The notes beneath the pieces are model-generated. The model searched no databases, was not told where the DNA came from, and was given only the letters and a program-made list of their open reading frames with translations. From positions 64,001 through 128,000 of the IMG/VR virus record IMGVR_UViG_3300042923_000524: a stretch of 64,000 nt of DNA. One strand, 5' to 3'. This DNA is from a virus. The position numbers and the translations under genes are program-made. This document shows, one piece after another, positions 6,957 through 57,220 of the stretch. The stretch's first letter is position 1, and each line of letters starts with the position of its first letter.

Positions 6957-9581
6957 TTATACAGAATTTTTCTTTTTATTGTAATATTCTTTCTGTTTTT
7001 CTCTATTGTATTTTTTCCATTCTTCTTTGCTACAATCTGGACAGTATTTTTTATTTGATGTTGTTTGCTGAATTCTTTCACCGCATTTTTCGCAAGATAT
7101 AGAATCATTAGCAATATTATTTTTTATATTTTCAAGTATTGTATCTCCAAAACATTCCCATAAAGTAGTTTTATAGTTGCTTTGTTTGTGTTTATATAAA
7201 TATTCAACTAGAACATCTACTACATAATTTACATTATCATTTATTTCTAATATTTCTTTTTTTATATCTTGATAGATATATGGTATGTTATTTGTTTCAT
7301 CATCGTCTTCAGAGCAATTAATCATAAAGTGTTTTTTTAAATCCATCTCTTGATATTTATCAATAATGCTATTATCCAACTTAACTCTTTTGTTTTTCAT
7401 TAGTACTTTATAATCAAATTTTCCTAAACCTATAGAATTAAAATTAATTTTGGGATTAGGTATGATTTTCTCTAGTTTGTTTACAACACTATGATTAATC
7501 TTTTCCACTTCTTCTTTCTTCTTGTCTTTGGCATATATAAAGAAGTGTGGCACTTTTGATTTAGTATAATCCGTAATTAGTTTTTTCTTATTCTTTGGTC
7601 TTTCTGGTTTATATAATGTCTTAGCAAAATCTATCGTAAAGTTATTTTCCATACATAATAACTTAATTACATCAATGTCTATGTTCTCACTATTCCATAT
7701 TTTAGTTATGTCGTTGCTAATCATACCAATGTTTCCACCTGTATAAGCAGACTTTAATCCATTATAAATAGTTTGATTGTCAATCTTTTCTGCTGGTGCT
7801 TTTCTCATATTATAATATAAAGGCACTATATCTTTCATATTGCGTTCAGATGCCTCTATAATCGTTTTTTCTGCACACACTAGGCTCTTATCCCCATCGT
7901 TATCAAATTGTAGAATCTTGGAAATTAAATCATGACAACTGGTGTATATAGCATCTGTAGTAAACCATTCACTCTTTTGCTTATCAACTATATTTCTTCT
8001 TACTGCATGCTCACGGAACAAATGAGGTGAACGCAAACAGTCAAGTTTATCTATATTCTTATATATTTTACAGAATACTTCTCCGTCTTCTAATAGACCT
8101 TTTGGATTCTTATCACCTAAAAACAAATATTCACAGAAAGCATATAAATCAGGAGATAGGAATGTGTATACTCCATTTATATCTACTTTTCCAGCTCTGC
8201 CATCTCTAACAATACTCTTTTTTACTTGTTTTAATATTTCTTTACTATATGTGTCATTCAATAATTCTGGATATATCTCTAATGCTTGTTGAATGTAATT
8301 CTTATTTTTATTAGAAGGCACAACGCCTAACACTTTTAACATTGTCTTTTTATCCGAACCAATACTTTTAATATTATGGATAGTTGTTTTAGAAATAGTC
8401 GCTAATTCTTTATCTGTCATATCTGTGAGAGTCTGAAGCATCTGATAGTTAATTTTTGCATTGTTAAAAGTATCTTCTTCCTCATTACATTTACCTGCTT
8501 GACAATTATATTTAATAAATTTATCTATGTAATCTTGCCATGAAGAGTAATATTTGTACATCTTAAATTGACTCTTAGTAAATATTACTTCTATACCATC
8601 TTTTAAAATATCCCATTCTTTTCCGTATATATCAGTAACTTTACTATAATCTTTTCCTTCAGTGTTTTTATTAGCTTCATTAATAAATTTATCAAAAGGA
8701 AAAGACATTAGAAGTCCCTTAATCCAAGGTAATCTCACCATCATGTTTTTCTTTGATTTGCTAGTTAAATACATTCCACAGCCGTCTGTGTGCGTTACAG
8801 GTATATCCATTTGCTTTCTTGTAATCTCATATGTAGTATCATCAATAAAATCAACAACGCCATTAACCATTGTTTCCATATCATCAACTACAATAGACTT
8901 AGTTATATCAAAATCTTCCCATATGTCAGTTGCAGAATTACAAAGAGCTAGATATGCCAAGAATTTATTAATATTAACTCCACCATTATCATTTATATCT
9001 TCAATTGTTAATCCACACATTAAAGTATTTTTATATTTATTGAATATAGATTCTTTTATAAATACTGTTTTCTTTGTTCTTATTTGTCCTGCTGAAGCTG
9101 TAAGACAAATATATTTTTCTCCATTGTGCATATATCCATCTAGTATTATATCTTCAATTACATCAAAGAAATAAGTTTGAACAATCATTATATCTTCATA
9201 TAATTGGTTTTGCTCCATATTTGCAGTTCTAGTTAATACGGAATCAAATACAGATATAATTCTATGTTTATTTAGACAATCTTTATTAAGATTTCTAATT
9301 CCTTTGTGTTTTTCAAACTCAATATATAACTTTTCCTTAGTATGTTTAATTTCTTTATTGGTTTTTTCTAGTAGTAGTTTAATTTTATCATTATGATTTG
9401 ATGCAATCATTTCTCTAATATGCTCTGGTATTAGTTTAAATTTGAATTTATCTCTTTTCTTTACTAATTTCTTGCGATACATATATAAACTATTGAGTCT
9501 TTTATGTATTTTCATTTCATTATCATTATAGAAACATGACGTATCCACTGAATATATATGTATTTGTTTTTTTAAGCTAAT
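6957..9581 (-). CDS. yonO: YonO-like single-subunit (double-psi beta-barrel) phage RNA polymerase
   Basis: SAGQIRTKK, TDGCG, RLPWIKG, RSPHL and catalytic LQFDNDGDK (DxDGD). The ORF extends 11 codons upstream of the called GTG to an ATT at 9581 placed 7 nt after AGGAGG. Confidence 0.9.
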   Translation of the reverse strand: MSLKKQIHIYSVDTSCFYNDNEMKIHKRLNSLYMYRKKLVKKRDKFKFKLIPEHIREMIASNHNDKIKLLLEKTNKEIKHTKEKLYIEFEKHKGIRNLNKDCLNKHRIISVFDSVLTRTANMEQNQLYEDIMIVQTYFFDVIEDIILDGYMHNGEKYICLTASAGQIRTKKTVFIKESIFNKYKNTLMCGLTIEDINDNGGVNINKFLAYLALCNSATDIWEDFDITKSIVVDDMETMVNGVVDFIDDTTYEITRKQMDIPVTHTDGCGMYLTSKSKKNMMVRLPWIKGLLMSFPFDKFINEANKNTEGKDYSKVTDIYGKEWDILKDGIEVIFTKSQFKMYKYYSSWQDYIDKFIKYNCQAGKCNEEEDTFNNAKINYQMLQTLTDMTDKELATISKTTIHNIKSIGSDKKTMLKVLGVVPSNKNKNYIQQALEIYPELLNDTYSKEILKQVKKSIVRDGRAGKVDINGVYTFLSPDLYAFCEYLFLGDKNPKGLLEDGEVFCKIYKNIDKLDCLRSPHLFREHAVRRNIVDKQKSEWFTTDAIYTSCHDLISKILQFDNDGDKSLVCAEKTIIEASERNMKDIVPLYYNMRKAPAEKIDNQTIYNGLKSAYTGGNIGMISNDITKIWNSENIDIDVIKLLCMENNFTIDFAKTLYKPERPKNKKKLITDYTKSKVPHFFIYAKDKKKEEVEKINHSVVNKLEKIIPNPKINFNSIGLGKFDYKVLMKNKRVKLDNSIIDKYQEMDLKKHFMINCSEDDDETNNIPYIYQDIKKEILEINDNVNYVVDVLVEYLYKHKQSNYKTTLWECFGDTILENIKNNIANDSISCEKCGERIQQTTSNKKYCPDCSKEEWKKYNREKQKEYYNKKKNSV

Positions 9582-12875: not shown

Positions 12876-13805
12876 ATGTATGCTAGTATTGATTTAGGTA
12901 CAACAAGAATAAAAGACCATCTAGGTAATTGTTATGCGTCTGGAATATCAGAGAGAGTTTACGACATGGCAAATTATGTTATGACACTAGAAGGTAAAAA
13001 ATATACAATGGAATTATTTCATGAGAAAGCAATATACGATGTAAATAGTAATAAAGCTTTAAATACTAATGCTAGATTAAACTACTTATATGCTTTACAC
13101 AAAATTACTAATGGTGATATGGGTATATATAAAGATGTTGTTGTACCCCTACCAGCAAAACAATATGAAAATGAAGAATCTGTAGCAATGTATAAGAAAC
13201 TTCTTACATTAGATAATTCAATAATGGTTGATGTAAATGGAAATACAAAAGAAATATATGTTGATAGTGTAGGAATTGTACCAGAGGATTTTCCAGCTTA
13301 CTATACAGAAGAAATAAATACTGAACGTTTTGGAAATGCAAAAACTCTATTAATTGGAATTGGTGGATTTAATTCAAATCAATACCTAATAAAGAATGGG
13401 GATATAATAAAATCTGACTCAGACGAACAGGGTTGTTTACAGTTATTTAGTGACATTGCAAGCATTATAAACAGTAAATATAATTCTAATATAAGTCTTG
13501 AAGAAGTGTATAGTACTTTAACTAAAGGATTATTTTACAAAGGTGAATATATTGATATTTTACCAATTGCTAAAGAACCTATAATGGAATATTGTAAGAA
13601 ATTTTATAATAAACTCAAACTTAAATTTTCTGTAGATACCGTGCCTTTTGTTCCTTGCGTGGGAGGCGGTAGCATATTTTTAACAGAATATTTACGTGAA
13701 TATATCCCCCACTTAGAGTTAATTAAAAATGCACAGAATGTTGCTGCTAAAGGTATGAGATATATGTTAGGTGTAGATGAATTACAGGATGTGGTTAATT
13801 TATGA
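12876..13805 (+). CDS. ParM/StbA actin-like partition ATPase
   Basis: SIDLGTTRIK phosphate-1 loop, VVVPLP, IGIGGFNS (phosphate-2), CVGGGS, NAQNVAAKG. Confidence 0.8.
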   Translation: MYASIDLGTTRIKDHLGNCYASGISERVYDMANYVMTLEGKKYTMELFHEKAIYDVNSNKALNTNARLNYLYALHKITNGDMGIYKDVVVPLPAKQYENEESVAMYKKLLTLDNSIMVDVNGNTKEIYVDSVGIVPEDFPAYYTEEINTERFGNAKTLLIGIGGFNSNQYLIKNGDIIKSDSDEQGCLQLFSDIASIINSKYNSNISLEEVYSTLTKGLFYKGEYIDILPIAKEPIMEYCKKFYNKLKLKFSVDTVPFVPCVGGGSIFLTEYLREYIPHLELIKNAQNVAAKGMRYMLGVDELQDVVNL

Positions 13806-14017
13806 GCTGGAGGAGAAGTTTATCATTTTCAACAGATGAAGAGGATTTAAAGAATCACTTTGATACAGGTGGGAGAAGTGATTTTGCTAAAGAAGCTATG
13901 AAATTCTTTATTAAGTTTAGAGATAAGGTTTTTATTGTTCCAGATGGAATGAGTTTTAATCATTCACCCAAAACAGCACAAATACCAAAGAATAATATTA
14001 AGAAATTTATCAAATAA
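13802..14017 (+). CDS. Putative ParR-like adaptor
   Basis: 71 aa, overlaps the parM stop (ATGA); RHH-like RSDFAKEAMKFFI. Confidence 0.5.
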   Translation: MSWRRSLSFSTDEEDLKNHFDTGGRSDFAKEAMKFFIKFRDKVFIVPDGMSFNHSPKTAQIPKNNIKKFIK

Positions 14018-14167
14018 TACTAATAATTAACATAATTACCTATATAAAATACTTCTGATGAAATAATTGATTACAAAAGACTTAAAGAACGCATTAAGAG
14101 TCTAATCAATAGTTTTATTAGGAGTATTTTTATTATAATCATTTGCTTAAAATAGGAGGGATATGAA

Positions 14168-14347
14168 TTGGAAGTGATAGGTGCATTTATATATACTTAT
14201 TTAGAATATGTTGTTGGTGGGGTTGGGGCAGTAGGATTTATAGGGTATATGTTGACTAGAAAAACACATGACCATTCAAATGATTTAACCCCTTATGTAG
14301 TAAAATTGGGTAGACAAAAAGATGCTATTACTAAACAAACAAAATAA
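14168..14347 (+). CDS. Small membrane-anchored protein upstream of FtsK
   Basis: AGGAGG, TTG start; hydrophobic YLEYVVGGVGAVGFIGYML. Confidence 0.5.
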   Translation: MEVIGAFIYTYLEYVVGGVGAVGFIGYMLTRKTHDHSNDLTPYVVKLGRQKDAITKQTK

Positions 14348-14363
14348 AGTGAGGTAGTGTATT

Positions 14364-15752
14364 ATGGCAAACCCATTAGCAAAAACAAATTTGAAATCTA
14401 AATTAACTAAAGAGGATATTCTAAATCAGAAAAAATATATAAAAGCAAAAAACGAATTCAAAGAAAAATTCTACAGATTAATGTTTGAGTTAGGTTTGTA
14501 CAATAAATTCAATAAAACTTATTTCTTACAGATAATGAATGAAACTAATTATGGATTTTATGCTCAGTTGTATCTTGTAGATGGTCTTTCGTTTAAACAA
14601 CTTCAACAAAAAATAGGTGAATTACAGGAGGGATTATGTTGTATTTGGATAATGCAGACTAAACAATTTGAGAATTATGCTTCAGTAAAGATAGTTACTC
14701 AACCTTTAGATGAAAACTTACCATTTGAAAATCCAAAGATTAAACCACATCAAATGTATCTAGGTATGAGTTTTTCAATGAAACCTATAATCATAGACGT
14801 TGTGTTAAACTGCATGATGCTCTGTGGAGGTGCTACAAACAAAGGAAAAACTAGATGGATATATTGTGTATTACTTAGTTGGATTTTAGGATGTAAACCT
14901 TCAGAAGTTGAATTATATATTTCAGATATTGCAAAGGATGAATACGTACTATTTAAGAATGTTAAACATGTTAAGTGTTATGCCAATGAATTGGAACAAT
15001 TATACAATATGGTACATGAATTAAAACGTAAGTTTGAAGAAAGAAAAGTATTAATTAGTAAATATAGAGAGACAGGTGAAGCGACTAATATATGGGAATA
15101 CAATCTAATTAGTAAAAACAAATTATCATATGTTTATTATGTTATAGATGAATTATCAGTGTTAATGCCTGATAAAACTGACAGTGAAGATGAAAAAGAC
15201 ATGAAAGGCGAAATACTAGCTATTTCAAAAATGCTAGAAAAGACCGCTAGAGCATTAGGTATATATGTATTATGTGCGACACAAAAAACTACTAAAGAAG
15301 AAATGCCAAGTATTATTAAAAATATGTCAGCCGTAAGAGTAAGTTTCGGAGCGAATGATGCAGTATCTTCAGAAGTTATTATGGGAGACTCCAGTGCAGT
15401 AGGGTTGCAACAGAGATATGCTGTCTACTCTTTAAATGGCGGTGAGAAGAAAGATTATTTGTTTAGTCCTTACCTAACCACAGATATGTTAAAAATGTTA
15501 CTAGAGCCGTATAAAACAAATAAAACAGAATTAAACAAACCTAATCCAATAAAAGAAATACCAACTATTGAAACTCTAGATTTACCGAAACAAATGATTC
15601 CTTATAATCAAAATTCAAATTATACACTTCAGCCTATTATATGGAAATTAGATGCAAAGTTTAGACCATATAAAAAGCAGGATGTGGAAATTGTAGAAAT
15701 GCCTAAACCACTATTTCATAATAATGGAGATGATGATTGCATTGATTACTGA
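14364..15752 (+). CDS. FtsK/SpoIIIE-family ATPase
   Basis: Walker A GGATNKGKT, Walker B YYVIDE, ARALGIYVLCATQ, VRVSFG. Confidence 0.85.
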   Translation: MANPLAKTNLKSKLTKEDILNQKKYIKAKNEFKEKFYRLMFELGLYNKFNKTYFLQIMNETNYGFYAQLYLVDGLSFKQLQQKIGELQEGLCCIWIMQTKQFENYASVKIVTQPLDENLPFENPKIKPHQMYLGMSFSMKPIIIDVVLNCMMLCGGATNKGKTRWIYCVLLSWILGCKPSEVELYISDIAKDEYVLFKNVKHVKCYANELEQLYNMVHELKRKFEERKVLISKYRETGEATNIWEYNLISKNKLSYVYYVIDELSVLMPDKTDSEDEKDMKGEILAISKMLEKTARALGIYVLCATQKTTKEEMPSIIKNMSAVRVSFGANDAVSSEVIMGDSSAVGLQQRYAVYSLNGGEKKDYLFSPYLTTDMLKMLLEPYKTNKTELNKPNPIKEIPTIETLDLPKQMIPYNQNSNYTLQPIIWKLDAKFRPYKKQDVEIVEMPKPLFHNNGDDDCIDY

Positions 15753-39747: not shown

Positions 39748-41784
39748 ATGGAATTTAAAAATTTTAAGAGGTTGTTACAAGAAAACTTTAAACAAATGTC
39801 ACAAGATGTAACTCATTTATTTGAGGTCGAAGTTGACAAAGATGAGCTGTGGAATCTATATTTAGATAGTTTTCCAACAGGTACTAATGAAATCTATAGG
39901 GAAAGAAGGGAATACGATTGTAGTTGTTGTAGGCACTTTATAAAGAACGTTGGTAATGCAGTAGTAATTAAAGACAATCAAGTTAAAACTATTTGGGATT
40001 TTGAAACAAATAGCACAACATTTCAACCAGTAGTGAATGCTTTATCTAAATACATAAAATCTAAAATTGTCTCAGATGTTTGGATAAGCAAATTTAAGAC
40101 CATAGGCACTGATAAAAATTATGAGCAATTAGATGGAAAAGTAACTGAATGGACTCATTTATATTTAGAATTGCCAGATAAATTTGTAGATAAGAGTGGT
40201 AGGTCAGAAGGGGATATTAAAGGTCAATACAGAGACATTAGAAATGTTTTTAAACGTTCTTTGGATGAATTAACCGAAGATTCTATTCTAACAGTATTAG
40301 AGCTAATTTCATCAAATACACTATATAAAGGTGAAGAATGGAAACAGCAACTTACATTATTTCTACAACACAAGAAAGCATATATCAAACTAACTGATTT
40401 AGAAAAAGAAAATTATACATGGGAACAATCAGTTAAGGTTGGTGCGGTTATTGGTAAAATCAGAAATCATTCTATTGGAACATTGCTTATAAACATCAGT
40501 GAAGGAATGGATTTAGATACAGCAGTAAGAAAGTATGAAGTTATTGTTGCTCCAACTAATTATAAAAGACCTAAAGCAATCTTTACTCAAAAGATGCTAG
40601 ATGATGCCAAGAAAACAATAGAAGAGTTAGGATATATGGAATCTCTAAGCAGAAGATATGCTATGCTTGATGATATTACAGTAAATAATATTCTGTTTTC
40701 TAACAAAGATTCTGCCAAAAGAATAGCTAATGCAGATATATTTGCAGAAATGTCAGGAGAAGCTGCCGTTAATCCTAAGAAATTCTCAAAGGTTGAAGAA
40801 GTTTCAATAGACAATTTTATAAACAATATATTACCAACAACCAAAGAACTTGAAGTACTATTAGAGAATAAACACTCTAATAGCATGGTATCACTTATAG
40901 CACCAGAAAATAAAGATAGCAAAACAATGTTCAAATGGGATAATAATTTTAGTTGGGCATATTCAGGAAATATAACTGATAGCTTGATGAAAGAAAGAGT
41001 AAAATCTGCTGGTGGTAAAGTTGATGGAGATTTAAGGTTCTCAATCCAATGGAATGATATTTCAAGAGATATGTGTGATTTAGATGCTCATTGTATTGAA
41101 CCAAGTAGATATGAAATTTACTACGGAAATAGAAGGCAAACTTCACCATCAAAAGGCACTCTTGATGTAGATATTATTAGTCCACAAAATGGAGTTCCTG
41201 CGGTTGAAAATATCACATATGAAGATAGAAAGTTTATGAAGGATGGAGATTATAAATTCTTTGTATATTATTTCTCAGGTAGACCAAACAATGGATTTAG
41301 AGCTGAAATAGAATTTGATGGTCAAATATACTCTTTTGAAAGCAAAGAAAACAACCCATCTAGCAGGATAGTTGAAGTGGCAACTGTAACTTTAAAGAAT
41401 GGTCAATTTACAATAAAAGAACATTTACAATCTTCAATGTCTTCAAAAGAAGTTTGGAATTTAAAGACAAATAACTTTGTACCAGTTTCAGTTGTTATGT
41501 ATTCACCTAACTATTGGAATGAACAAGATGGTATAGGGCATAGACATTACTTCTTTATGTTAAAAGACTGTGTAAATCCAGAACAACCTAATGGCTTCTA
41601 TAATGAGTTTTTAAAAGAAGATTTAATGAAACATAAGCATGTATTTGAAGCTCTTGGTGGCAAGATGAGAGTTAAAGATGTTGATGACCAATTATCAGGA
41701 TTGGGATTTTCATCAACTAAAAGGAACGAACTATTAGTTAAAGTAAAAGGTCAAACAGAAAGAATAATTAAAATAAAAATATAA
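39748..41784 (+). CDS. Large phage protein of unknown function (678 aa)
   Basis: Long ORF with YDCSCCRHF near the N-terminus and [26 protein letters not shown] in the C-terminal half. Confidence 0.7.
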
Positions 41785-42967: not shown

Positions 42968-43636
42968 GTGGTAATTGAAATGACAACATGCATTCAAAAC
43001 ATTAATAGTCACACTACATACGATAAACCAATAAACACACTAATCAACGCAGCACAAAAATTATTAGAGGTACGGAAAGGTGATTTGATATTTGTAGACT
43101 TTGACCAACTAATAAAAAGTGGTAGAGACCATAGTATACAATCGAAACCTAGACCAGCGGTAGTTTTAAGCAATAACGTTGGAAACAAGTTTTCACCTAC
43201 TATTTGGGTGGCAACATTAACTTCTAATCTTAACAAAAATAAACTACCAACACATGTAAAAGTATCTGAAGAAACAGGACTTAGATTTGATTCGTTGGTT
43301 TTAGTAGAACAGGTATTCACAATTGACAAAAAACTTATATTATCAAAAGTGGGGAAATGTTCAGCACATATAATGGAGCAAATTGACACAGCAGTTAAAA
43401 TTCAAGCAGGTACAATTGATTTAGAGTATATAGAAGATACAGTTAATTGGATTAATAAAGTAGAGTGCGAAGCTCGAATAAATGGGTTTGACCCAGAGGA
43501 TGCAAGATTACACACTAGACTAGTTAAGGAATTGCAATCTTATTGTAATCAATATGGATATGATTATACTAAGGTATTAAAAGAAAAAACATTTATAAAA
43601 GTCTCCGTGGACAATAGAAAACAAAATGCAATGTAA
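42968..43636 (+). CDS. MazF/PemK endoribonuclease with a C-terminal extension of about 65 aa
   Basis: KGDLIFVDF...SKPRPAVVLSN...PTIWVATLTS...PTHV...DSLVLVEQVFTIDK. Catalytic Arg/Thr positions are kept and no upstream antitoxin gene is seen. Confidence 0.85.
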   Translation: MVIEMTTCIQNINSHTTYDKPINTLINAAQKLLEVRKGDLIFVDFDQLIKSGRDHSIQSKPRPAVVLSNNVGNKFSPTIWVATLTSNLNKNKLPTHVKVSEETGLRFDSLVLVEQVFTIDKKLILSKVGKCSAHIMEQIDTAVKIQAGTIDLEYIEDTVNWINKVECEARINGFDPEDARLHTRLVKELQSYCNQYGYDYTKVLKEKTFIKVSVDNRKQNAM

Positions 43637-46365: not shown

Positions 46366-47331
46366 TTGAAACATTTTATTATGTATAATCCAGAATTAAA
46401 AAATGTTTATCTTAATACTATTGACAACGAAGGAACTAGAGAAAATATTGGATATACTTTTCAAAAGGCTAGAATACTAGAAGATGAAAAAGGAAAAGAT
46501 ATATGTCATTTTAATTTTGATGAATTAGGTGAATTATGGAGTAGCTTCAGAGCAAAAAGTTTTGCTGCCATTACTACTAAAGTTAGTATTATAGTTAAGT
46601 ATATTGACTTTTGTATTGATAAAGGATTGGCTGATGTAAACTACAATTGGGCAAAGATGTACTTTAATGAAGATGGATTAAGACCATATGTAAGCAAAGT
46701 TGCTATAGGTAATAAAATAATTGACAAAGAAACTTTAGAAGATATAATTGATTTTTGTGCTAACGCTCAAGATGCTGTAATCTTTGCATTATTATTTGAA
46801 GGTGTAAAGGGTAGACCAATACAAGAAAATGCCTTTGAAGAAGTTAGGAATCTTAGAATGGTTGATTGTAATACTGATACTAATGATATTATACTAAGAC
46901 AAGATGATGGTAAAACAAGAGTTATTCAAATATCTGAAAGAACTATGAATTTAATAGTAGATGCTTATAATCAACAAACGTATTTAAGAAAAAATGGCGA
47001 ATCAACCGCAAAACTTAAAGAGATAGAAATGATTGATACAGGTTATGTTTTAAAATTAGGTGATATAGGCAAGAATTCCAATTCGAGTGAAGATAGAATA
47101 AGTCATCAAGTTTTATTTAGAAGACTAAAGAATATTGCAAAAGCATATGGAAATAGTTTTTTAACACCTACTAATATTTACATGAGTGGAATGGTTGACT
47201 ATGCTCAAAGACTGCAAACTGAAAAAGGTGTAGAATTAGACAATAATGATTATATTCATATATGTGAGAAATATGGAATAGACCCTAAAAGATGGTATAA
47301 GATAAAAGTGGAGATTAAGCAGTATCTATAA
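46366..47331 (+). CDS. Integrase-fold protein lacking catalytic motifs, SPbeta YopR/MrpR master-repressor-like
   Basis: DAVIFALLFEGVKG...EEVRNLRMVD; LTPTNIYMSG replaces HxLRH. Confidence 0.65.
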   Translation: MKHFIMYNPELKNVYLNTIDNEGTRENIGYTFQKARILEDEKGKDICHFNFDELGELWSSFRAKSFAAITTKVSIIVKYIDFCIDKGLADVNYNWAKMYFNEDGLRPYVSKVAIGNKIIDKETLEDIIDFCANAQDAVIFALLFEGVKGRPIQENAFEEVRNLRMVDCNTDTNDIILRQDDGKTRVIQISERTMNLIVDAYNQQTYLRKNGESTAKLKEIEMIDTGYVLKLGDIGKNSNSSEDRISHQVLFRRLKNIAKAYGNSFLTPTNIYMSGMVDYAQRLQTEKGVELDNNDYIHICEKYGIDPKRWYKIKVEIKQYL

Positions 47332-48722: not shown

Positions 48723-49017
48723 GTTACAATTTGTATATTATATAGGTTGTAAGTTTTAGAGCATTGATTTCTGTTTCTATTGCGTTTAAAGTTACAATTT
48801 GTATATTATATGAGTTGTAAGTTACTTTGCAAATGTCGAAAATAGATGTATAATTATTACAATTTGTATATAAATATGGGTTGTAAGTTGACTACAGGTG
48901 TTAATATTTATTTATTCTTCATGTTGCAGTGTATTATATGAGCTGTAAGTTTAAAAGCCATTTATAAAATCATCTTTGTATTTGCTTTTGCAATCTGTAT
49001 ATTATATGAGTTCTAAG
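48723..49017 (+). CRISPR. CRISPR array, 5 repeats / 4 spacers
   Basis: Repeat GTTACAATTTGTATATTATATGAGTTGTAAG at 48723, 48791, 48856, 48923 (shortened) and 48987; spacers 37, 34, 35 and 37 nt; degeneration increases towards the cas gene. Confidence 0.9.
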
Positions 49018-49123: not shown

Positions 49124-50437
49124 ATGAATAAATGTATAAAAATAACAATAAAAAATTGTATAAATATAGATAAATATAGACAGGTATTAAGGGATTTAAG
49201 ATATCAAACTTGGTTAGCAAGTAATAAAGCTATGACTAATTATTATACTTTTGCATTAGAGAACATGGAATATAAAAACATAAATGGAATCAACATAAAT
49301 GAGAAAGAGAGATATGGTAAAAGTTATGATGCATGGATACAAAATAGAATGAATGAGATTATGACCATGCATCAAAGTGGGAATGTAGCTCAAACAGCAC
49401 AATTTGTCGCTAAGAGATTTAAAGACGATATAAAAAAAGGTATGTTTAAAGGCAAGATATCAATATCTAATTTTAAACAAGATATCCCACTTATTATACA
49501 TAATAAAAACTATAAAATCATACAGGGTGATAAGGGATATAAAATTGAATGTAGTTTATTTAATAGAGAATACCAAAAAGAAAATATTATTAAAAAAGCT
49601 GAATTTCAAATTGATAAGATTGATAATAATTGTAAAAGTGTATTAAATAGAATTATATCTGGTGAATATAAGCAGGGTTCTATGCAAATTACAGAAGATA
49701 AAAAAGGTAAATGGTATTTTATAATTAGTTATAGTTTTGAAGCATCCAAACAAACTTTTGACCAAAATAGAATATTAGGCATAGATTTAGGTATAACTAA
49801 AGTAGCTACAATGCAAATATTTGATAAAACCATTGAAGAGTGGGATAGATTATCTTGGAAAGAATGTATGATGGATGGTAGAGAGTTAATACATTATAGA
49901 CAAAAGATAGAAGCGAGAAAAAAACAATTACAAATAGCTAGTAAGTGGTGTGGAGAAGGTAGAGTTGGTCATGGTACTAAAACAAGAATGAAACCTTTAG
50001 ATAAAATAGGAAGTGTGGTAAGTAATTTTAAAGATACATATAATCATAAAATAAGCAGATATATAATAGATTTTGCTATTAAACATAATTGCGGAATAAT
50101 TCAAATGGAAGATTTAAGTGGATTTAGTGAACAACAAACAGAAAGTTTATTAAAGAATTGGAGTTATTTTGATTTACAAACTAAGATAAAATATAAAGCC
50201 GAAGAAAAGGGAGTAGAGGTTATATTTATTAATCCTCAATATACAAGTAAAAGATGTAGTAGGTGTGGTTGTATAGACACACGAAATAGAGATTGTGAAA
50301 ATAATCAATCCAAGTTTGAATGTGTAACTTGTGGTCATAAAGAAAATGCAGATATAAATGCAGCGAAAAATATTAGTATGCCTGATATTGAAGAAATTAT
50401 TGGTGAATACATAAAATATGGTTTAAAAGTAAGTTAA
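49124..50437 (+). CDS. cas12f1: Cas12f1 (type V-F) miniature RNA-guided nuclease
   Basis: 437 aa; RuvC I ILGIDLG, RuvC II QMEDL, CSRCG/CVTCG zinc finger, RuvC III NADINAAKNI. Colinear with AsCas12f1 (SGNVAQT, RIISGEY, GHG.K.R.KP, NWSYFDLQ); array and anti-repeat adjacent. Confidence 0.88.
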   Translation: MNKCIKITIKNCINIDKYRQVLRDLRYQTWLASNKAMTNYYTFALENMEYKNINGININEKERYGKSYDAWIQNRMNEIMTMHQSGNVAQTAQFVAKRFKDDIKKGMFKGKISISNFKQDIPLIIHNKNYKIIQGDKGYKIECSLFNREYQKENIIKKAEFQIDKIDNNCKSVLNRIISGEYKQGSMQITEDKKGKWYFIISYSFEASKQTFDQNRILGIDLGITKVATMQIFDKTIEEWDRLSWKECMMDGRELIHYRQKIEARKKQLQIASKWCGEGRVGHGTKTRMKPLDKIGSVVSNFKDTYNHKISRYIIDFAIKHNCGIIQMEDLSGFSEQQTESLLKNWSYFDLQTKIKYKAEEKGVEVIFINPQYTSKRCSRCGCIDTRNRDCENNQSKFECVTCGHKENADINAAKNISMPDIEEIIGEYIKYGLKVS

Positions 50438-50580: not shown

Positions 50581-53350
50581 TTGGTCAGAAGTATAAATTT
50601 AGGAGGTATAACGATGATAGAATTATTTTGTTTAGAACATGACTGTGACTTTAACATTAATGGTAAATGTGAAAGAGTAGATTTACAAGCTAGGTATGAT
50701 GCTTCTATTGGTTCTGTTGTATTAGAAACAGAAAATTATGAGTTATGTTATAAAAGAGAGAAATAGAAAATAATTCATGGAGGGCAAACAAGATGCAATT
50801 AAAATGTATTTTTAGTATGAAAGGTATAGATATTACTCTTAATAAAATCTATGAATTATTAGACGAAGATAATTTGAATTATTACATTTATGATGATATG
50901 AACGGATATAGGGCATTTAGTAAATTTATGTTTGAAAAGATTCAATGAAAACGATATTCTATCTAAATATGAAAGGAGATTAAATAATGGAACAAAATTA
51001 TTTAGCAACATATAGAAATGGTGATAATTTTGAATATGCATGGTTTGGAACAGAAGAAGAGGCATTAGAATGGATAGATATAGAATCTCAAAAATATACA
51101 AATGTAGAAGTAGTGGAATTAAAAGTTGTAAATGTTCTATTTGAAAGAGACTAGCAAATGGTTATTCTAATGAAATTTAGAAAGGAATGTTTAATAATGA
51201 ATAAATTTCAAAAATTTGTAAGTAGGAAAGCAAAGCAAATGATTCGTAATGAAAAAAATTCTCGTAGTTTTAGATACTATAGAAAAGAATGGAGATTTAT
51301 AAAATCAGAAGTTCTTGATAGTCAAATTGATTTTGAAAAAACAAATAATTTTAAAGAAAAACAATACTCTTATTTATCTGGTGAAACTGACCCACATTGA
51401 TAAAATAACGACAAAATGCGAGATTGATAGGGAGTTGATAAATTGAAGGTAATTATAAAAACAGCATATAATGTAGACTTAAAATATATTTACTCTCATG
51501 TAAAACCATTGGTAGATAAAAATGTATTTATTAAACGTATTAGAGATGAAGTAAGTCAATATGTAAAAGCCTGTTTAGACACTTCCACAAATGAAAATGG
51601 GAATGGATTAGAAGATAACATTATCTACTATCTAATTCAAGATGGATATGCTGAAGCTAAATCAGAACATGCTAAGTATTTAATTACTGAATGAATATTT
51701 TAGGAGGCGGTTTATATGAACAAATATATAGTAAGAATTACTCCATTATATAAAGATACTTTAAATCAATTTGGAAATATAGTTTTTGAGTCAAAATTAA
51801 TTAATAGTTTGGTGGGATTGGAATCTGAATTATCAATAAATGATATATGGAATATTCCACATGTATTTAAAGTAGAAGAAGATGTTGAAGGAAAATTCGA
51901 TTAAAATGTTAATAGTATATGTGTTTTGAGGTGATTTAATGAATGAAAAAGAAGAATGGATTATAGATTATTTAAAAAATAAGACCGCATTTAAATTTAT
52001 AGATATGCTGGATGAAGATTTTGTTGAAGCATATATAGATGAATTTGAAGTTAAAAGCCAAAACATGACGTTAGGAGCTTCTAAGTGTAAGGAATTATCA
52101 AAGCTGCTTGGTAGTATGTATAAAAAAGGCTTATTGAATAGATTTCCTCATGGTGTGAGAAGTGGTTATAATCAAGATTATGCGAATTTTAAAGCACCTA
52201 AGTGGGTATATTCATATGAATTAATAAATTAAGACAAAATGTGGATTTGGAGAAAATATTGAAAGGAGTTATATATTATGGGTTCAGCACAACAAGACTT
52301 TAATAAGTTTATAGAATATAAAAGAAAGTTTAGAAATAAAGTAATAATTAAATCTGTTATCGGTATTATTTTTGTGACATTTATTATATATAAAGTATTA
52401 TTAATATAATTCCAATAAAAGGTGAAATTGATTGGGAGTTGGTAATAAAATGAAAAATAAATTAATTGGTAAAAAAGTAGATATAATCGACAAAGAATCA
52501 ATATATTATAAACATTGGGGTTTTATAAGAGGTTTTGATGGAGATGTTTATCATATAAATGGTGGTTCTATATCTTTAAATAATGGTGACTTAACTCCCA
52601 TATTTGATAGAAATCAATTTTCAGTTAGAAGAAGGCAAGAAGGAGACAATAATGAAGTGTAATAACTGTACATGTAAGAAATGTAAAAATTACGAATGTG
52701 AATATCATTGTAAGGATATGACTGATTTAGAGAAACAAATATGTGATATGGATGTATCTGGAGAATGTGATTGTTTTAAAGGAGAAAAAGATGTTAGAAA
52801 AAGTTAATCAAAACAAAGAATTAAACAAATATGTAACTATAGTTTGTCAAGATAAGATTGGTGATAATTTCTTAGAAGCCACTGTCAAAGTTAATGCCAC
52901 AATAATAATTGATAATGATGACATTAAAGATTTCTCTAAAGAGATAAGAAGATTAATACTTGGATATAAAGTTTAAATAAAACGAATATTTGATTAGGAG
53001 TTGAGAATATGGGATTAAAAGCAATACCAAATGTTTATAGTTATAGATGTGATGAGTGTAATACAGGTTCAGACCCAGTTCAAGAATATGAATCAATTAA
53101 AGAATGCCTAGAAGATTTAAAAAGTGCAGGATGGAAGGGAAATTATAAAAAACTCCTGTGTCCTGAGTGTGCAAATAAATCTAAATAAAATGAATGTTTG
53201 GAGGTAATAAGAATGTCATATTATGATTATTTAGATGATTATAGATTTATGCATCCAGAAGAATTTGATGATGCAGAAGAAAATGAAAAGAGAGCATTAA
53301 AAGAAGCTGAAGTGATAGCCAAGATTTTAAACAATATGTCCTCAAAATCA
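50581..53350 (+). CDS. Array of small hypothetical genes, several Cys-rich
   Basis: About 12 ORFs of 45-100 aa with RBSs, many separated by the 18-bp palindromic motif. Confidence 0.6.
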
Positions 53351-53453
53351 TAGTTTGCTTTAAATATTTAATAAAAAATATAAAACTAAACACAAACTAA
53401 TTTTCAGAATACACCAACAAAAGAAAAACATTACCTTAGTTTCCATAAATAAC

Positions 53454-53504
53454 TTGCGAAAATATATAATAGCACTTATAATAAAATATACGAACATGCG
53501 TTCG
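53454..53504 (+). promoter_or_regulatory. sigmaA promoter with a perfect Firmicute LexA (SOS/Cheo) box at the start site
   Basis: TTGCGA(53454)-17-TATAAT(53477); CGAACATGCGTTCG at 53491-53504. Confidence 0.8.
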
Positions 53505-53534
53505 ATAAACAACCAAATAGTAATTATCTGAATA

Positions 53535-53621
53535 TTCGACAAAATAGGAAAAACTAACCAATAATATGTCGAAACATGTAGTAATTATCCACTGTAAACC
53601 TTTACATAATAATGTTATTAT
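53535..53621 (+). promoter_or_regulatory. Two perfect Spo0A boxes upstream of an extended -10 promoter
   Basis: TTCGACA (53535-53541) and TGTCGAA (53567-53573); TGTTATTAT with the -10 at 53616 and a weak -35. Confidence 0.65.
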
Positions 53622-53658
53622 TAATGTAATAGATAATTAAATATCAAGGGGTGATATA

Positions 53659-54507
53659 GTGGATACAATGAGTGTTAGAGATATTTGGTTAGTAGCAATA
53701 CCAGAGATTAGTTTATCCATATTATTTGGTCTTTTACTTATAAATAAGCAAATATTCAAAAAGAAAAATAGGTCTTTAGTCGGGGTATTGAGATTTATAG
53801 TATCTGTTATAATGGTATTAGTAATAAATTATTACTCAAGAGCAACGGTAAATAATGTTGTTTTAATTATATATTGCACTACAGTTGCATATTCTTTAAC
53901 TTTTAGTTTGGTTTGGAGAAATAATTTAAGGCAGAGTTTATTAGTTGGATTATTAATAACTTATTTAATTATGGGAGCAGAGTTTATAACATTACCACTT
54001 ATGAGTTTATTAATTAACAAATTTCAAGCATTATCAATTTTTAGCATTAGATTTTTATTATCAATACCCTCAAGAGTTATAGATGCGGTGGCTATTAGTG
54101 GACTTATGATATATGATATGTCAATACAAAGTAAATTGTTTGATAAGAATTGGAGCTTATTAAAAGTTCAAGAGAAAATAACGACAACAGCTATATTAAT
54201 ACTTTTTACAATGATTGTAACAATAGCTGCAAATAATTCAGACATGTTTGTAAAATTAAATCAAAATGGAATTGATACTTCATTTATTAATAATAATTTA
54301 CAGAGTTCTTTCTATGGCGTAATCTTCTTTATGATAGTTTCTGTAGTATTCTTTTATACAATAATTAAGTATTGTGAATATAGAGATATAGCACTAAAAA
54401 CACCAAGGGAACTATTTACGGATATTGCAGAAATTTCATCTCCTGAAAAAATAAATGATTATATAGATATTTTACAAAAGCATTTATCAGAAAAGGAGGT
54501 GAAATAA
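53659..54507 (+). CDS. AgrC/VirS-like multi-pass membrane sensor lacking the kinase domain
   Basis: About 7 hydrophobic segments followed by a cytoplasmic tail of only about 45 aa (..PEKINDYIDIL..) with no H-box and no HATPase N/G boxes. Confidence 0.6.
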   Translation: MDTMSVRDIWLVAIPEISLSILFGLLLINKQIFKKKNRSLVGVLRFIVSVIMVLVINYYSRATVNNVVLIIYCTTVAYSLTFSLVWRNNLRQSLLVGLLITYLIMGAEFITLPLMSLLINKFQALSIFSIRFLLSIPSRVIDAVAISGLMIYDMSIQSKLFDKNWSLLKVQEKITTTAILILFTMIVTIAANNSDMFVKLNQNGIDTSFINNNLQSSFYGVIFFMIVSVVFFYTIIKYCEYRDIALKTPRELFTDIAEISSPEKINDYIDILQKHLSEKEVK

Positions 54508-54627
54508 ATGAAGAAAATTTTATCTATATTAACTATGGGTATTATAATAGTTGGAAGTTTAGTAACTCAAACATTTGCTTGTGGAGCAATATTAGGAGAA
54601 GATTCAATTCCAGATTCACTAAAGTAG
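54508..54627 (+). CDS. agrD: AgrD-like cyclic thiolactone autoinducer precursor (39 aa)
   Basis: AGGAGG RBS; MKKILSILTMGIIIVGSLVTQTFA-CGAIL-GEDSIPDSLK: amphipathic leader, Cys ring and acidic tail with Pro at +6. Confidence 0.85.
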   Translation: MKKILSILTMGIIIVGSLVTQTFACGAILGEDSIPDSLK

Positions 54628-54664
54628 AAAGAAGGGGTGTATCCCCTTCTAAAATCCAAATGAG

Positions 54665-54982
54665 GTGGTTTCTATTGATGATACGAGAAGGTTAAAAACA
54701 AATGAATTACTTAACACATTGGATTGTACTATAAAAGATAAAATTAAACTCAAAGAGATTTTGAGGTCTCTTGATAATGAAGATGTTGAAACTGGTAGTA
54801 TATATGAATTAATAAGTCAAAAAACACATAAAGACCAATCAACCATAAAGAAATTTATGGCAAAGATTACAGGTCGATTAGATAATAAATTATTAAGGAA
54901 ATTAGGTATTAAAAATAAACCAAAAGGAAAAGAGTTTTTAATACATCTGTACAGGACAATAAATGAAAATGAGGATACATAA
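54665..54982 (+). CDS. Stand-alone Spo0A C-terminal (DNA-binding) domain-like protein, no receiver domain
   Basis: [23 protein letters not shown] aligns with [37 protein letters not shown] aligns with KAKPTNSEFIAMV (from memory). Confidence 0.6.
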   Translation: [105 protein letters not shown]

Positions 54983-54984
54983 AA

Positions 54985-55545
54985 TTGATTGATAAAATAG
55001 CAACATGGATAGGCAAAATACTTTCTGATTATACAGGATTAAATGAAGTTAAGCAGATAGAATTGATATATTTTCTGAAGAGAATAATTAAAAATTTGAT
55101 ATTCTATATAATCACATTTAATATAGCAATTTTACTAAATATATTTAACCCTGTATTAATACTATTACTAAGTTATCATTGTGTAAGATTGAGGTTTGGA
55201 GGAATACATTTAAAGAATCAGACATTATGTTTAATAATAAGTATAATTGCTCCTTTGGGATTAGGATACATAGCATCTAATTATAAATTCAATTTACTTT
55301 TTATGGTAATATTATATGCCGTAATGATTTTATACGCAAATTACATAGACGTGATAGATAATATTAATAGACCCCTGACAGTTGATAAGAAGCTTAAATT
55401 TAAAAAACAAGGCTTAATAACTATGACAATATTATTTGTACTAAATATTATAATATATATACTTGATTTCGTATTAATAAGCAATAGTATCCTAATGGGA
55501 GTCTTACTAGGAGTGATATTACTTATAAGGTTTCCAATAAAATAA
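54985..55545 (+). CDS. agrB: AgrB peptide maturase
   Basis: LRFGGIHLKNQTLCLIIS (RxxxGGxH...C motif), DNINRPL, multi-TM. Confidence 0.9.
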   Translation: MIDKIATWIGKILSDYTGLNEVKQIELIYFLKRIIKNLIFYIITFNIAILLNIFNPVLILLLSYHCVRLRFGGIHLKNQTLCLIISIIAPLGLGYIASNYKFNLLFMVILYAVMILYANYIDVIDNINRPLTVDKKLKFKKQGLITMTILFVLNIIIYILDFVLISNSILMGVLLGVILLIRFPIK

Positions 55546-55708
55546 AAGAATGAGAAAAACAAAAGCCAGAGTTTCCTCTGACTTCCGTAGCAATAAGTGT
55601 GTCTTTTGCCGAGTTCACGACTTATGCCTATAGATAAGTATAATGTTTTTCTCTTCTAAATACAACATAAATTTTTACAAATAATTTAAATGTAAAGGAG
55701 AGAAAGGA

Positions 55709-56296
55709 ATGAAAAGAAATGCTAATTTAGTTTACAAGGAAATGATGTTAGAGGTTAATAAGTTTATTAACGAAATGGGATTGGATTGCGAAATATTAGG
55801 TCTTAAAACTAACCAAGATAAGATGTTATACTACTGGAATTACATAGACCAAAAAAATGTTTTTAAAGGCATCCTAGAGCTTCCAAATATATATTTTATT
55901 AAACTAGCAAACTTATTGTGTAATACCACTGAAAGAATGATAGAATTTCAAGAGAAGTTTTATAATCCTGATGGAAATGTTGCTAATCAACTTAGAGAAT
56001 ATAGAAGGTATTTACTAGATATTAGAGATGATAATGCTATGTCATTGTATAAAGTGTTAAAAATAGTTATAGATAATAGATGTTGGAGCAATTTAGATAC
56101 AGTATTAATGGAATTATATCTTGAGCCGATAGACAAATGGATATGTGATGAGATAATAGATTTGATACATAATGAGAATCTTACGGCAGAAGATATATAC
56201 TTGTGGTATAAGAGAGGAAAGAATGTTAAGAGTTTAATCAGTTTCGATATTGATTATATAAAGTTGTCAAATAAACAGTTTGTAGAAGAAATATAA
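55709..56296 (+). CDS. Hypothetical protein (195 aa)
   Basis: ORF track, AAGGAG RBS. Confidence 0.6.
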   Translation: MKRNANLVYKEMMLEVNKFINEMGLDCEILGLKTNQDKMLYYWNYIDQKNVFKGILELPNIYFIKLANLLCNTTERMIEFQEKFYNPDGNVANQLREYRRYLLDIRDDNAMSLYKVLKIVIDNRCWSNLDTVLMELYLEPIDKWICDEIIDLIHNENLTAEDIYLWYKRGKNVKSLISFDIDYIKLSNKQFVEEI

Positions 56297-56503
56297 AAGT
56301 TTATCATTATTGGATTAATGCTATGCGGAGATTTAGCAATCCTTACAATTTATCTAAACAAGTGGAGAAGTCTGCTTGTTTAAAACTTTATTAAAAACAA
56401 ATATAAAATTACTATTGACAAATGAATTAGTGGTAGTATAATAAATTATAGGAGATGAAATAAATGGCAGTTCCACCACAGTACTAAAATAAATTGACGG
56501 AGG

Positions 56504-57220
56504 TTGTTGCAGATGAAGAATTATAAGATGGTAGATAGGTATAAATTATACGAGAATTTACTTGGAATTATAATGATAGGTGTTATATTGTTTGCTCATG
56601 TTAATAATTTAAATAATATTAATAAAAATGAATATAAAACTAAAACAAACATATACATATTATCAGAAGAACAAGAAGTATTTATTAAAGAATGGAGTGG
56701 TATTCCTAGGGAATTGAGAGAGTGGATGGATGGGTATGAGGAAGAAAAGTTTCAACCAATGGAAATTCCTTTAAGTTTGGAACTTCAGGAATATACATAT
56801 GAGATGTGTAAGAAGTACAATGTTGATTATATATTCGCAATGAGTATTATGAGGACTGAAAGCAGTTTTAATATTAAAGCTAAATGTAAAAACAATACAG
56901 ATAATTATTACAGTAGGGGACTTATGCAACTAAACGAAAGATATATATCTGAATTCGTAGAACTTACAGGAATAAAGGATTTTAATATAAATAATCCACT
57001 ACATAATATTGAAGGTGGCGTTGCAAAATTAGCTAATTTAAATAGATTTTGGGATAAATATGAATTAGCAGAAGAAGATAATTGGTATGCTGTCACCAAT
57101 AGCTATAATTTAGGGCTTAATAAATATAAAAAACAAGTAATAAGTAGGGGTAATTTCTTCAGTAGGGAGTATGACAGAAAGGTAATGAAAAATAAAGAAA
57201 AATTAGAAGGAGGAATATAA
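56504..57220 (+). CDS. Lytic transglycosylase (SLT domain) with N-terminal membrane anchor
   Basis: SIMRTESSFN (catalytic Glu), GLMQLN, NIEGG, YNLG. Confidence 0.85.
   Translation: MLQMKNYKMVDRYKLYENLLGIIMIGVILFAHVNNLNNINKNEYKTKTNIYILSEEQEVFIKEWSGIPRELREWMDGYEEEKFQPMEIPLSLELQEYTYEMCKKYNVDYIFAMSIMRTESSFNIKAKCKNNTDNYYSRGLMQLNERYISEFVELTGIKDFNINNPLHNIEGGVAKLANLNRFWDKYELAEEDNWYAVTNSYNLGLNKYKKQVISRGNFFSREYDRKVMKNKEKLEGGI

Follow-up and report, generated by a model that had tools for sequence, protein, structure and literature searches.

To our knowledge, every characterised Agr system relays its signal by His-Asp phosphotransfer to a LytTR regulator, and every characterised phage peptide system (arbitrium, Rap-Phr) uses a cytoplasmic receptor of the RRNPP type. 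The subject of this report is a four-gene operon at positions 53659-55545 of a 64,000-nucleotide stretch of phage DNA. This stretch, which we call the window, runs from base 64001 to base 128000 of a virus record (IMGVR_UViG_3300042923_000524) that is 137,947 bp long and has direct terminal repeats. The operon keeps the Agr peptide factory, swaps both of the signalling proteins, and adds 0A boxes, the core binding sites of Spo0A, in its promoter region.

Agr genes have been found on a phage before. The agr3 locus of phiCDHM1 has the order agrC-agrB-agrD, encodes a 453-residue AgrC kinase and contains no regulator (PMC3901668; HG531805). The present operon resembles that locus in that phage-borne AgrB and AgrD genes lie downstream of a membrane-protein gene in the same orientation, and in that neither phage has a response regulator. 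It differs in gene order, which is sensor-D-regulator-B here and C-B-D in phiCDHM1, and in its Spo0A-like gene, which phiCDHM1 lacks. The membrane proteins are also unlike. AgrC of phiCDHM1 has an H-box and a HATPase domain; both are missing from the protein in its place here (p282), which is not similar to AgrC of phiCDHM1 in sequence. The two AgrB proteins are 30% identical over 106 residues.

Other Agr loci offer further points of comparison. With the canonical agrBDCA loci of S. aureus and of clostridial and Paraclostridium plasmids the operon shares AgrB and an AgrD with a Cys-plus-four ring and a Pro-containing tail. Unlike them it has no HPK10 kinase and no LytTR protein; its predicted output is a receiver-less domain of the Spo0A_C fold. 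Closer in this respect are the clostridial operons that contain agrB and agrD only, such as agr1 of C. difficile (PMC8534292) and the C. perfringens locus (PMC2706048), where an Agr peptide is likewise encoded without an adjacent kinase or regulator. In C. perfringens, two uncharacterised open reading frames (ORFs) lie upstream and are co-transcribed, giving the order CPE1563-CPE1562-agrB-agrD (PMC2706048). These operons differ from ours in being chromosomal, and no Spo0A-fold gene has been reported in them.

The regulator of the operon, p105, also has parallels. Gut phages carry spo0A homologues that lack a receiver (Schwartz et al., bioRxiv 10.1101/2023.01.19.524802, PMC10294663). Like p105, they consist of the effector domain only and are expected to act independently of the phosphorelay. 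They were found by their sequence similarity to spo0A, whereas p105 has no match to PF08769 and carries a different recognition helix; no agr cassette is linked to them in that paper (bioRxiv 10.1101/2023.01.19.524802). Phage RRNPP systems located beside spo0E or abrB have been proposed to be sporulation hijackers. In the literature that we found, phage agrBDC cassettes and receiver-less phage Spo0A homologues are described separately, and our search returned no paper that reports an agr cassette together with a Spo0A-type domain, or an Agr receptor without a kinase.

Results

Organisation of the operon and peptide synthesis

The cassette consists of four genes:

53659-54507, + strand: p282, an orphan membrane protein of 282 residues, in the place that AgrC has in other agr loci, ahead of the genes for peptide and peptidase
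54508-54627, + strand: AgrD-like precursor, 39 residues
54665-54982, + strand: p105, a predicted stand-alone DNA-binding protein of the Spo0A_C fold, 105 residues, without a receiver
54985-55545, + strand: AgrB peptidase, 186 residues

An earlier note on this DNA, made from the letters alone, had described a four-gene operon here, and all four ORFs are confirmed on the + strand. They are tightly packed, with gaps of 0, 37 and 2 nucleotides between them. The stop codon of p282 directly abuts the ATG of agrD, whose ribosome-binding site lies inside the 3' end of p282, and a Shine-Dalgarno-like site precedes each of the four genes. The start of p105 is ambiguous by about three codons, with a GTG falling inside a ribosome-binding-like GAGGTGG. 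Ahead of the cassette is an intergenic region of 305 bp. The layout is that of one operon with translational coupling.

The peptide factory appears to be intact. AgrB, identified as such in the earlier note, matches Pfam family PF04647 over residues 3-180 (4.8e-21; 75 bits against a cut-off of 23) and retains the catalytic His and Cys. Residues R68, G72, G73, H75, C82 and P130 are invariant between this protein and three annotated AgrBs, those of phiCDHM1 and of two Paraclostridium plasmids. His75 and Cys82 have the same seven-residue spacing as the catalytic pair of S. aureus AgrB. A word-indexed homologue search with AgrB returned only AgrB itself.

The 39-residue ORF upstream encodes a hydrophobic leader, a predicted CGAIL ring and an acidic, Pro-containing tail, reading FA-CGAIL-GEDSIPDSLK. 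It matches the TIGR04223 model of AgrD over its full length, at a score below the cut-off (12.6 bits against 19; E 0.12). Cys26 aligns with the ring Cys or Ser of annotated AgrDs and Pro35 with their invariant Pro, which predicts a CGAIL thiolactone ring, the ring also given in the earlier note. The sequence evidence for this assignment is moderate and the positional evidence, its size and its place in an operon with agrB, is strong; we accept the ORF as a predicted AgrD. Since the His and Cys of AgrB are intact and an AgrD-type precursor is adjacent, the pair should yield a small cyclic peptide, a thiolactone whose ring is CGAIL.

Absence of a kinase and a response regulator

The earlier note also held that the sensor lacks a His-box and a HATPase domain and that no AgrA/LytTR regulator is present. 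Both statements stand. p282 ends about 45 residues after its last transmembrane segment, with no H-box. Six-frame searches of the whole 137,947-bp record with hidden Markov models (HMMs) gave no match at E<=10 for HATPase_c or HATPase_c_5, and none at that threshold for LytTR or Response_reg; control genomes did give matches in the same searches. Could a kinase or a receiver be concealed by a frameshift? There is no room for a frameshifted kinase because p282 ends at the start codon of agrD, and no agrC broken by a frameshift was found, nor a kinase elsewhere in the record. Nor is there space for a hidden receiver upstream of p105, where agrD and the 37-nucleotide spacer follow directly on one another.

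The regulator p105

What takes the place of the missing regulator? The earlier note had suggested that the 105-residue protein is Spo0A_C-like, and its predicted fold agrees. An AlphaFold model built on a ten-sequence alignment has six helices and a mean pLDDT (predicted local distance difference test) of 78. When it was compared with 48,161 chains by VIA-align, the Spo0A structure 1FC3_A came first with a Z of 9.4 and a root-mean-square deviation of 3.0 A over 102 of the 105 residues; the next chain scored 5.2. Foldseek placed Spo0A (1LQ1 or 1FC3) at all of ranks 1-6, with template-modelling scores of about 0.6. Identity to the Spo0A C-domain is 11-17%, and p105 itself has no direct sequence match in Pfam (PF08769 included), PHROGs, NCBIfam or the PDB and nothing significant in PADLOC.

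Relatives of p105 supply the sequence link. An HMMER search over 1.84 billion cluster representatives found nine below E 1e-3: one low-complexity artefact, four stand-alone proteins of 99-113 residues, and four proteins of 211-266 residues that carry the p105-like part at their C-terminal end. A separate word-indexed search, which otherwise returned only p105 itself, added a fifth stand-alone relative with 69% identity. With six of the ten family members standing alone, the receiver-less form recurs. Three of the longer relatives contain a receiver domain (REC; Response_reg 2e-14, 2.3e-13), and in the two clearest fusions, P0008 and P0010, the acidic pair, the phospho-Asp, the Thr/Ser and the Lys are all retained. 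The family is rare, and its members are all metagenome singletons. P0010 had no match in the plasmid collection, and its sole match in the phage collection was a genuine Spo0A on a contig judged to be bacterial and mis-binned.

Six of the ten members match PF08769 below threshold; the strongest of these matches (2.7e-5) scores 24.5 bits, where 25 are required. The family profile is colinear with Spo0A 1LQ1 across the whole domain (E 0.017): the family motifs Y-x-x-I/L-S-x-K, S-T-I-K/R-K/R and K-P-K-N-K-E-F align with YPDIAKK, SRVER and KPTNSEF of Spo0A. Against the genuine full-length Spo0A of that mis-binned contig, hhalign with the family profile gave a probability of 97% and an E of 2e-11 over receiver and effector together. 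When only the four closest stand-alone sequences were used, the C-domain alignment recurred weakly (E 0.077), so the sequence link to Spo0A rests on the fused relatives.

p105 thus shares with the Spo0A C-domain (1FC3, 1LQ1; PF08769) a six-helix fold over the whole domain and a colinear profile that includes the KP.N.EF motif. It differs in that the conserved recognition helix is replaced, and no member of its family reaches the gathering score. On the model, p105 is a complete receiver-less effector domain of the Spo0A type that ends cleanly. It is not an orthologue of Spo0A, having no receiver and a different recognition helix. Because that helix differs, the DNA specificity of p105 cannot be assumed from that of Spo0A, and the fold does not imply a hijack of the host 0A regulon. 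The isolated DNA-binding domain of Spo0A binds DNA without phosphorylation (PMC3485338); as an effector domain without a receiver, p105 would likewise need no phosphorylation to be competent for DNA binding.

Searches for further relatives of the whole cassette were negative. Pattern scans found none in IMG/VR or in GTDB species genomes, and neither tblastn nor blastn found one among 50,697 phage records. The metagenome scan gave a single result, a bacterial contig (L002). At 7627-7992, beside a TetR-like gene, it encodes a stand-alone Spo0A_C protein of 121 residues whose recognition helix is near-canonical. Receiver-less Spo0A domains thus occur in bacteria too. Elsewhere, record MT836727.1, deposited as 'Bacteriophage sp.', carries at 1267-2067 a canonical full-length Spo0A between ABC transporter and glycogen synthase genes; it is most likely a mis-binned bacterial contig.

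The membrane protein p282

The protein at the AgrC position is harder to place. A hydropathy scan of p282 shows seven segments, at residues 8-33, 37-62, 64-85, 90-120, 140-156, 173-194 and 214-240. The first loop is rich in KKKNR (+5), which implies an N-out, C-in topology with the tail of some 45 residues in the cytoplasm. Charged residues inside the segments are E16, R45, E107, R138 and D141. The only His of the protein is at 275, in the tail. CPBP/MroQ-type proteases require a motif that a single His in this position does not provide, and p282 is ruled out as a member of that group.

p282 gave nothing significant in Pfam, NCBIfam, PHROGs, PADLOC or a PDB sequence search. The ESM Atlas returned unnamed clusters and one lead, a 'putative sensory transduction protein kinase' (0.89), which falls below the Atlas reliability bar, and a single-sequence AlphaFold model reached a pLDDT of 46, too low to be of use. 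For comparison we took seven AgrC-type kinases from phiCDHM1 and clostridial plasmids. The segments of p282 span residues 8-240, an extent similar to that of the sensor part of those kinases, which show five to six merged segments ending at about 174-219. p282 has the form of a C-in sensor module with six to seven transmembrane segments in about 210-240 residues, a pattern that is not specific to any one family. Its size, topology and gene position make an AgrC ancestry plausible and leave it unproven.

The promoter region

The 305-bp region upstream of p282 contains two kinds of repeated motif, the 0A box TGTCGAA and an 11-mer:

53518-53528, + strand: 11-mer TAGTAATTATC, copy 1, 6 nucleotides before the first 0A box; candidate operator
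53535-53541, - strand: perfect 0A box TGTCGAA (TTCGACA on the + strand), overlapping the -35-like TCGACA of a promoter-like site
53567-53573, + strand: second perfect 0A box TGTCGAA, inverted relative to the first and 32 bp from it
53579-53589, + strand: 11-mer TAGTAATTATC, copy 2, 5 nucleotides after the second 0A box

Spo0A of Bacillus and of C. difficile has TGTCGAA as its core site, which its DNA-binding domain recognises in isolation and in the unphosphorylated state (PMC3485338). The whole 138-kb genome has five perfect 0A boxes, two of which make up this pair, 92-124 bp before the start codon of p282. For five sites placed uniformly, the chance that any two fall within 32 bp of one another is 0.005 (0.5%), a figure that takes no account of the pair falling in this particular intergenic region and that concerns a pattern noticed post hoc. 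The 11-mer TAGTAATTATC occurs three times in the genome where 0.5 copies are expected; two of these are here, 61 bp apart. All four elements are confined to 72 bp upstream of the operon.

The simplest reading of these motifs is that phosphorylated host Spo0A (Spo0A~P) controls the cassette through the boxes; p105 may also act, at the 0A boxes or at the 11-mers. On sequence grounds the paired boxes, which the earlier note did not mention, would tie the cassette to regulation of the Spo0A type.

A hairpin, CGAAC-ATGC-GTTCG, lies at 53491-53504, 30 bp upstream of the first box. Hairpin and boxes together place four CGAA/TTCG words within 85 bp of a CG-poor genome.

The phage and its probable host

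The window points to a large, temperate, SPbeta-like phage, on the basis of a YonO homologue, an MrpR-type gene and a MazF gene. The first of these is a single-subunit RNA polymerase of the YonO type (862 residues; 6957-9548, - strand). Its closest deposited relative is encoded in the record of Clostridium phage D-1873 (62% identity), followed by phi3T/SPbeta (52%); it is the strongest clue to the host within the window. The MrpR-type repressor/recombinase gene is at 46366-47331, with the agr cassette about 6 kb downstream, and the MazF/PemK toxin gene is at 42968-43636 (8.9e-25). CheckV puts the completeness of the phage record at 79%, despite its terminal repeats. Its GC content is 28% and the genome is rich in stop codons. 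Taken together, GC content and the best YonO match indicate that the host is probably a low-GC Clostridium, and as such would be a spore-former.

The operon is surrounded by small genes on the + strand, with genes for an SLT transglycosylase and a deoxynucleoside monophosphate (dNMP) kinase downstream. Within the operon, between its two halves, is one further element:

54630-54650, no strand assigned: strong, GC-rich hairpin GAAGGGG-TGTAT-CCCCTTC between agrD and the p105 gene, with no T-run after it on the + strand

This hairpin may be an attenuator or an RNA-stabilising element, and could set different levels of expression for the two halves of the operon.

A second structured region, 55546-55660, follows agrB. 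This intergenic sequence is GC-rich beyond the norm of the genome, and in it an inverted repeat, GAGAAAAACA ... TGTTTTTCTC, flanks two hairpins. Folding gives a z of -3.9 for the - strand and of -2.2 for the + strand; a terminator-like site lies on the - strand at 55588-55559. The region may encode a small antisense or divergent RNA, or may mark the boundary of the cassette as a DNA element. Rfam had no match within 52800-56600.

Several other genes of the window deserve mention. Between 42968 and 47331, a few kb upstream of the agr cassette, a DndB-like gene accompanies those for MazF/PemK and the MrpR-type protein. A 437-residue protein encoded at 49124-50437 has a Cas12f1-like TNB domain (3.1e-22), which marks a TnpB-type insertion sequence (IS) element within the phage; another of the five perfect TGTCGAA words in the genome lies just upstream of it, at 48834. 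The 678-residue protein encoded at 39748-41784 shares 65-67% identity with proteins from myoviruses of the Bacillus cereus group (BCP78, Bcp1 and others). This gene is a mosaic piece to which no function has been assigned, in a phage that otherwise appears SPbeta-like. At 12876-15752 a ParM/ALP-like actin gene adjoins a gene for an FtsK/SpoIIIE-like ATPase, and the two may form a phage segregation or DNA-translocation module.

Discussion

How might an Agr operon work without a kinase or a response regulator? Our tentative reading, to which we give somewhat less than an even chance, is that the temperate SPbeta-like phage carries a pared-down operon for Agr-type peptide signalling without phosphorylation. 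It is supported by the tight, coupled operon, the conserved residues of AgrB and AgrD, the fold of p105, its homology to receiver-fused regulators and the recurrence of its receiver-less form, the absence of kinase and receiver domains, the paired motifs, the topology of p282 and the proximity of the MrpR-type gene.

On this reading, the paired 0A boxes and the paired 11-mers would govern the promoter region from which the operon is transcribed. Binding of host Spo0A~P to the 0A boxes would switch the operon on, and p105, binding to the boxes or to the 11-mers, would provide positive feedback. AgrB and AgrD would release the cyclic peptide, and p282, the seven-transmembrane protein at the AgrC position, would be its receptor. 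The tail and loops of p282 would hold p105 at the membrane, or release it, by direct contact. In this way the density of phage or lysogens would set the amount of free p105. Phage genes would be the targets of the circuit, and genes of the host network for sporulation entry might be as well. The boldest form of this reading is a quorum circuit with no phosphotransfer at any point, in which p282 binds the phage's own peptide and directly gates p105, so that density is linked to the 0A-box promoter of the cassette and perhaps to host genes for entry into sporulation. This form we regard as unlikely.

Several observations weigh against the phosphorylation-free reading as a whole. p282 has no detectable relative: a word-indexed search returned only itself, and tblastn against the 50,697 phage records was empty. 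Its similarity to AgrC by BLASTP is not significant (E 1.3), and neither BLASTP nor hhalign found a match in the membrane part. The tail, residues 247-278, aligns with the H-box region of AgrC by hhalign, weakly (E 0.14); its score against a profile of the dimerization and histidine phosphotransfer (DHp) domain was reached by 142 of 5000 shuffled sequences (2.8%); and its spacing from the last transmembrane segment is 10 residues, compared with about 38 in real AgrCs. As for p105, in the alignment with the 1LQ1 profile the helix at the position that reads the 0A box differs from the conserved helix of Spo0A. Finally, the 0A boxes may serve host Spo0A alone.

We also considered whether the tail of p282 is the remnant of a DHp domain in which His became Thr (RELFTD against LYHDMKNH). 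Given the E value, the result with shuffled sequences and the mismatch in spacing, this was not established.

The main alternative, which we rate only slightly lower, places the receptor in the host. The peptide would activate a host kinase of the AgrC type, or jam it in the manner of cross-group Agr interference. p105 would be constitutively active with no peptide input, possibly as a mimic or competitor of Spo0A, and p282 would not be a receptor: it would instead help to mature or export the peptide, act as a sink for it, or serve as a decoy of the receptor in the host. There are precedents for such an arrangement. Clostridial loci with agrB and agrD only have their receptors elsewhere (C. 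difficile agr1, PMC8534292; C. perfringens, PMC2706048), the authors of the phiCDHM1 study proposed that a regulator of the host passes the signal on (PMC3901668), and the phage Spo0A homologues without a receiver are believed to be independent of host signals (bioRxiv 10.1101/2023.01.19.524802). The failure to detect AgrC homology in p282 points the same way. Other features fit less well. The cognate host kinase is hypothetical. All four genes are packed into a single, translationally coupled operon. p282 stands where AgrC does in phiCDHM1, ahead of the genes for peptide and peptidase, and one of the candidate roles in maturation, that of a CPBP/MroQ-type protease, is excluded by the single His in the tail.

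Might p282 instead have nothing to do with the peptide? It could be an unrelated phage membrane protein, active for example in superinfection exclusion or envelope modification, that merely shares a transcript with agrD, p105 and agrB. p282 has no family, homologue or reliable model that would contradict this, and it is absent from the PADLOC library. Yet its stop codon abuts the agrD start and its 3' end contains the agrD ribosome-binding site, and its size and topology fit those of Agr-type sensor modules. We think such a coincidence improbable. Still more improbable is that the cassette is a decaying passenger, a captured bacterial operon of the form [AgrC-like]-agrD-[REC-Spo0A_C-like]-agrB from which kinase and receiver have been truncated away, leaving signalling lost or a residual peptide: p105 relatives fused to a receiver with intact residues do exist, and all the cassette proteins are extremely divergent from database sequences, but four frames remain intact in a stop-rich genome of 28% GC, AgrB retains its catalytic residues and AgrD its Cys and Pro, p105 is a complete domain with a clean end whose stand-alone relatives recur (one at 69% identity), and the regulatory region has its paired motifs. 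Decay and coincidence are both the less likely explanations, given the intact frames, the conserved catalytic residues, the coupling and the recurring stand-alone relatives.

To return to phosphorylation-free signalling by the operon itself, the interpretation in the earlier note is partly supported. The fold of p105 and the absence of kinase and regulator hold; the role of p282 as receptor, its binding to p105 and the 0A regulon as a target remain putative, and the mechanism can be tested. On a modest reading, the operon is a second kind of phage-borne agr cassette, very unlike that of phiCDHM1, and its regulator defines a rare Spo0A_C-like family whose members occur both fused to a receiver and alone. 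If the circuit is as proposed, these four genes would be a compact system in which to test the direct gating of a transcription factor by a membrane peptide receptor. They could serve, too, to ask whether temperate phages that infect spore-forming hosts link their density to the Spo0A decision of the host.

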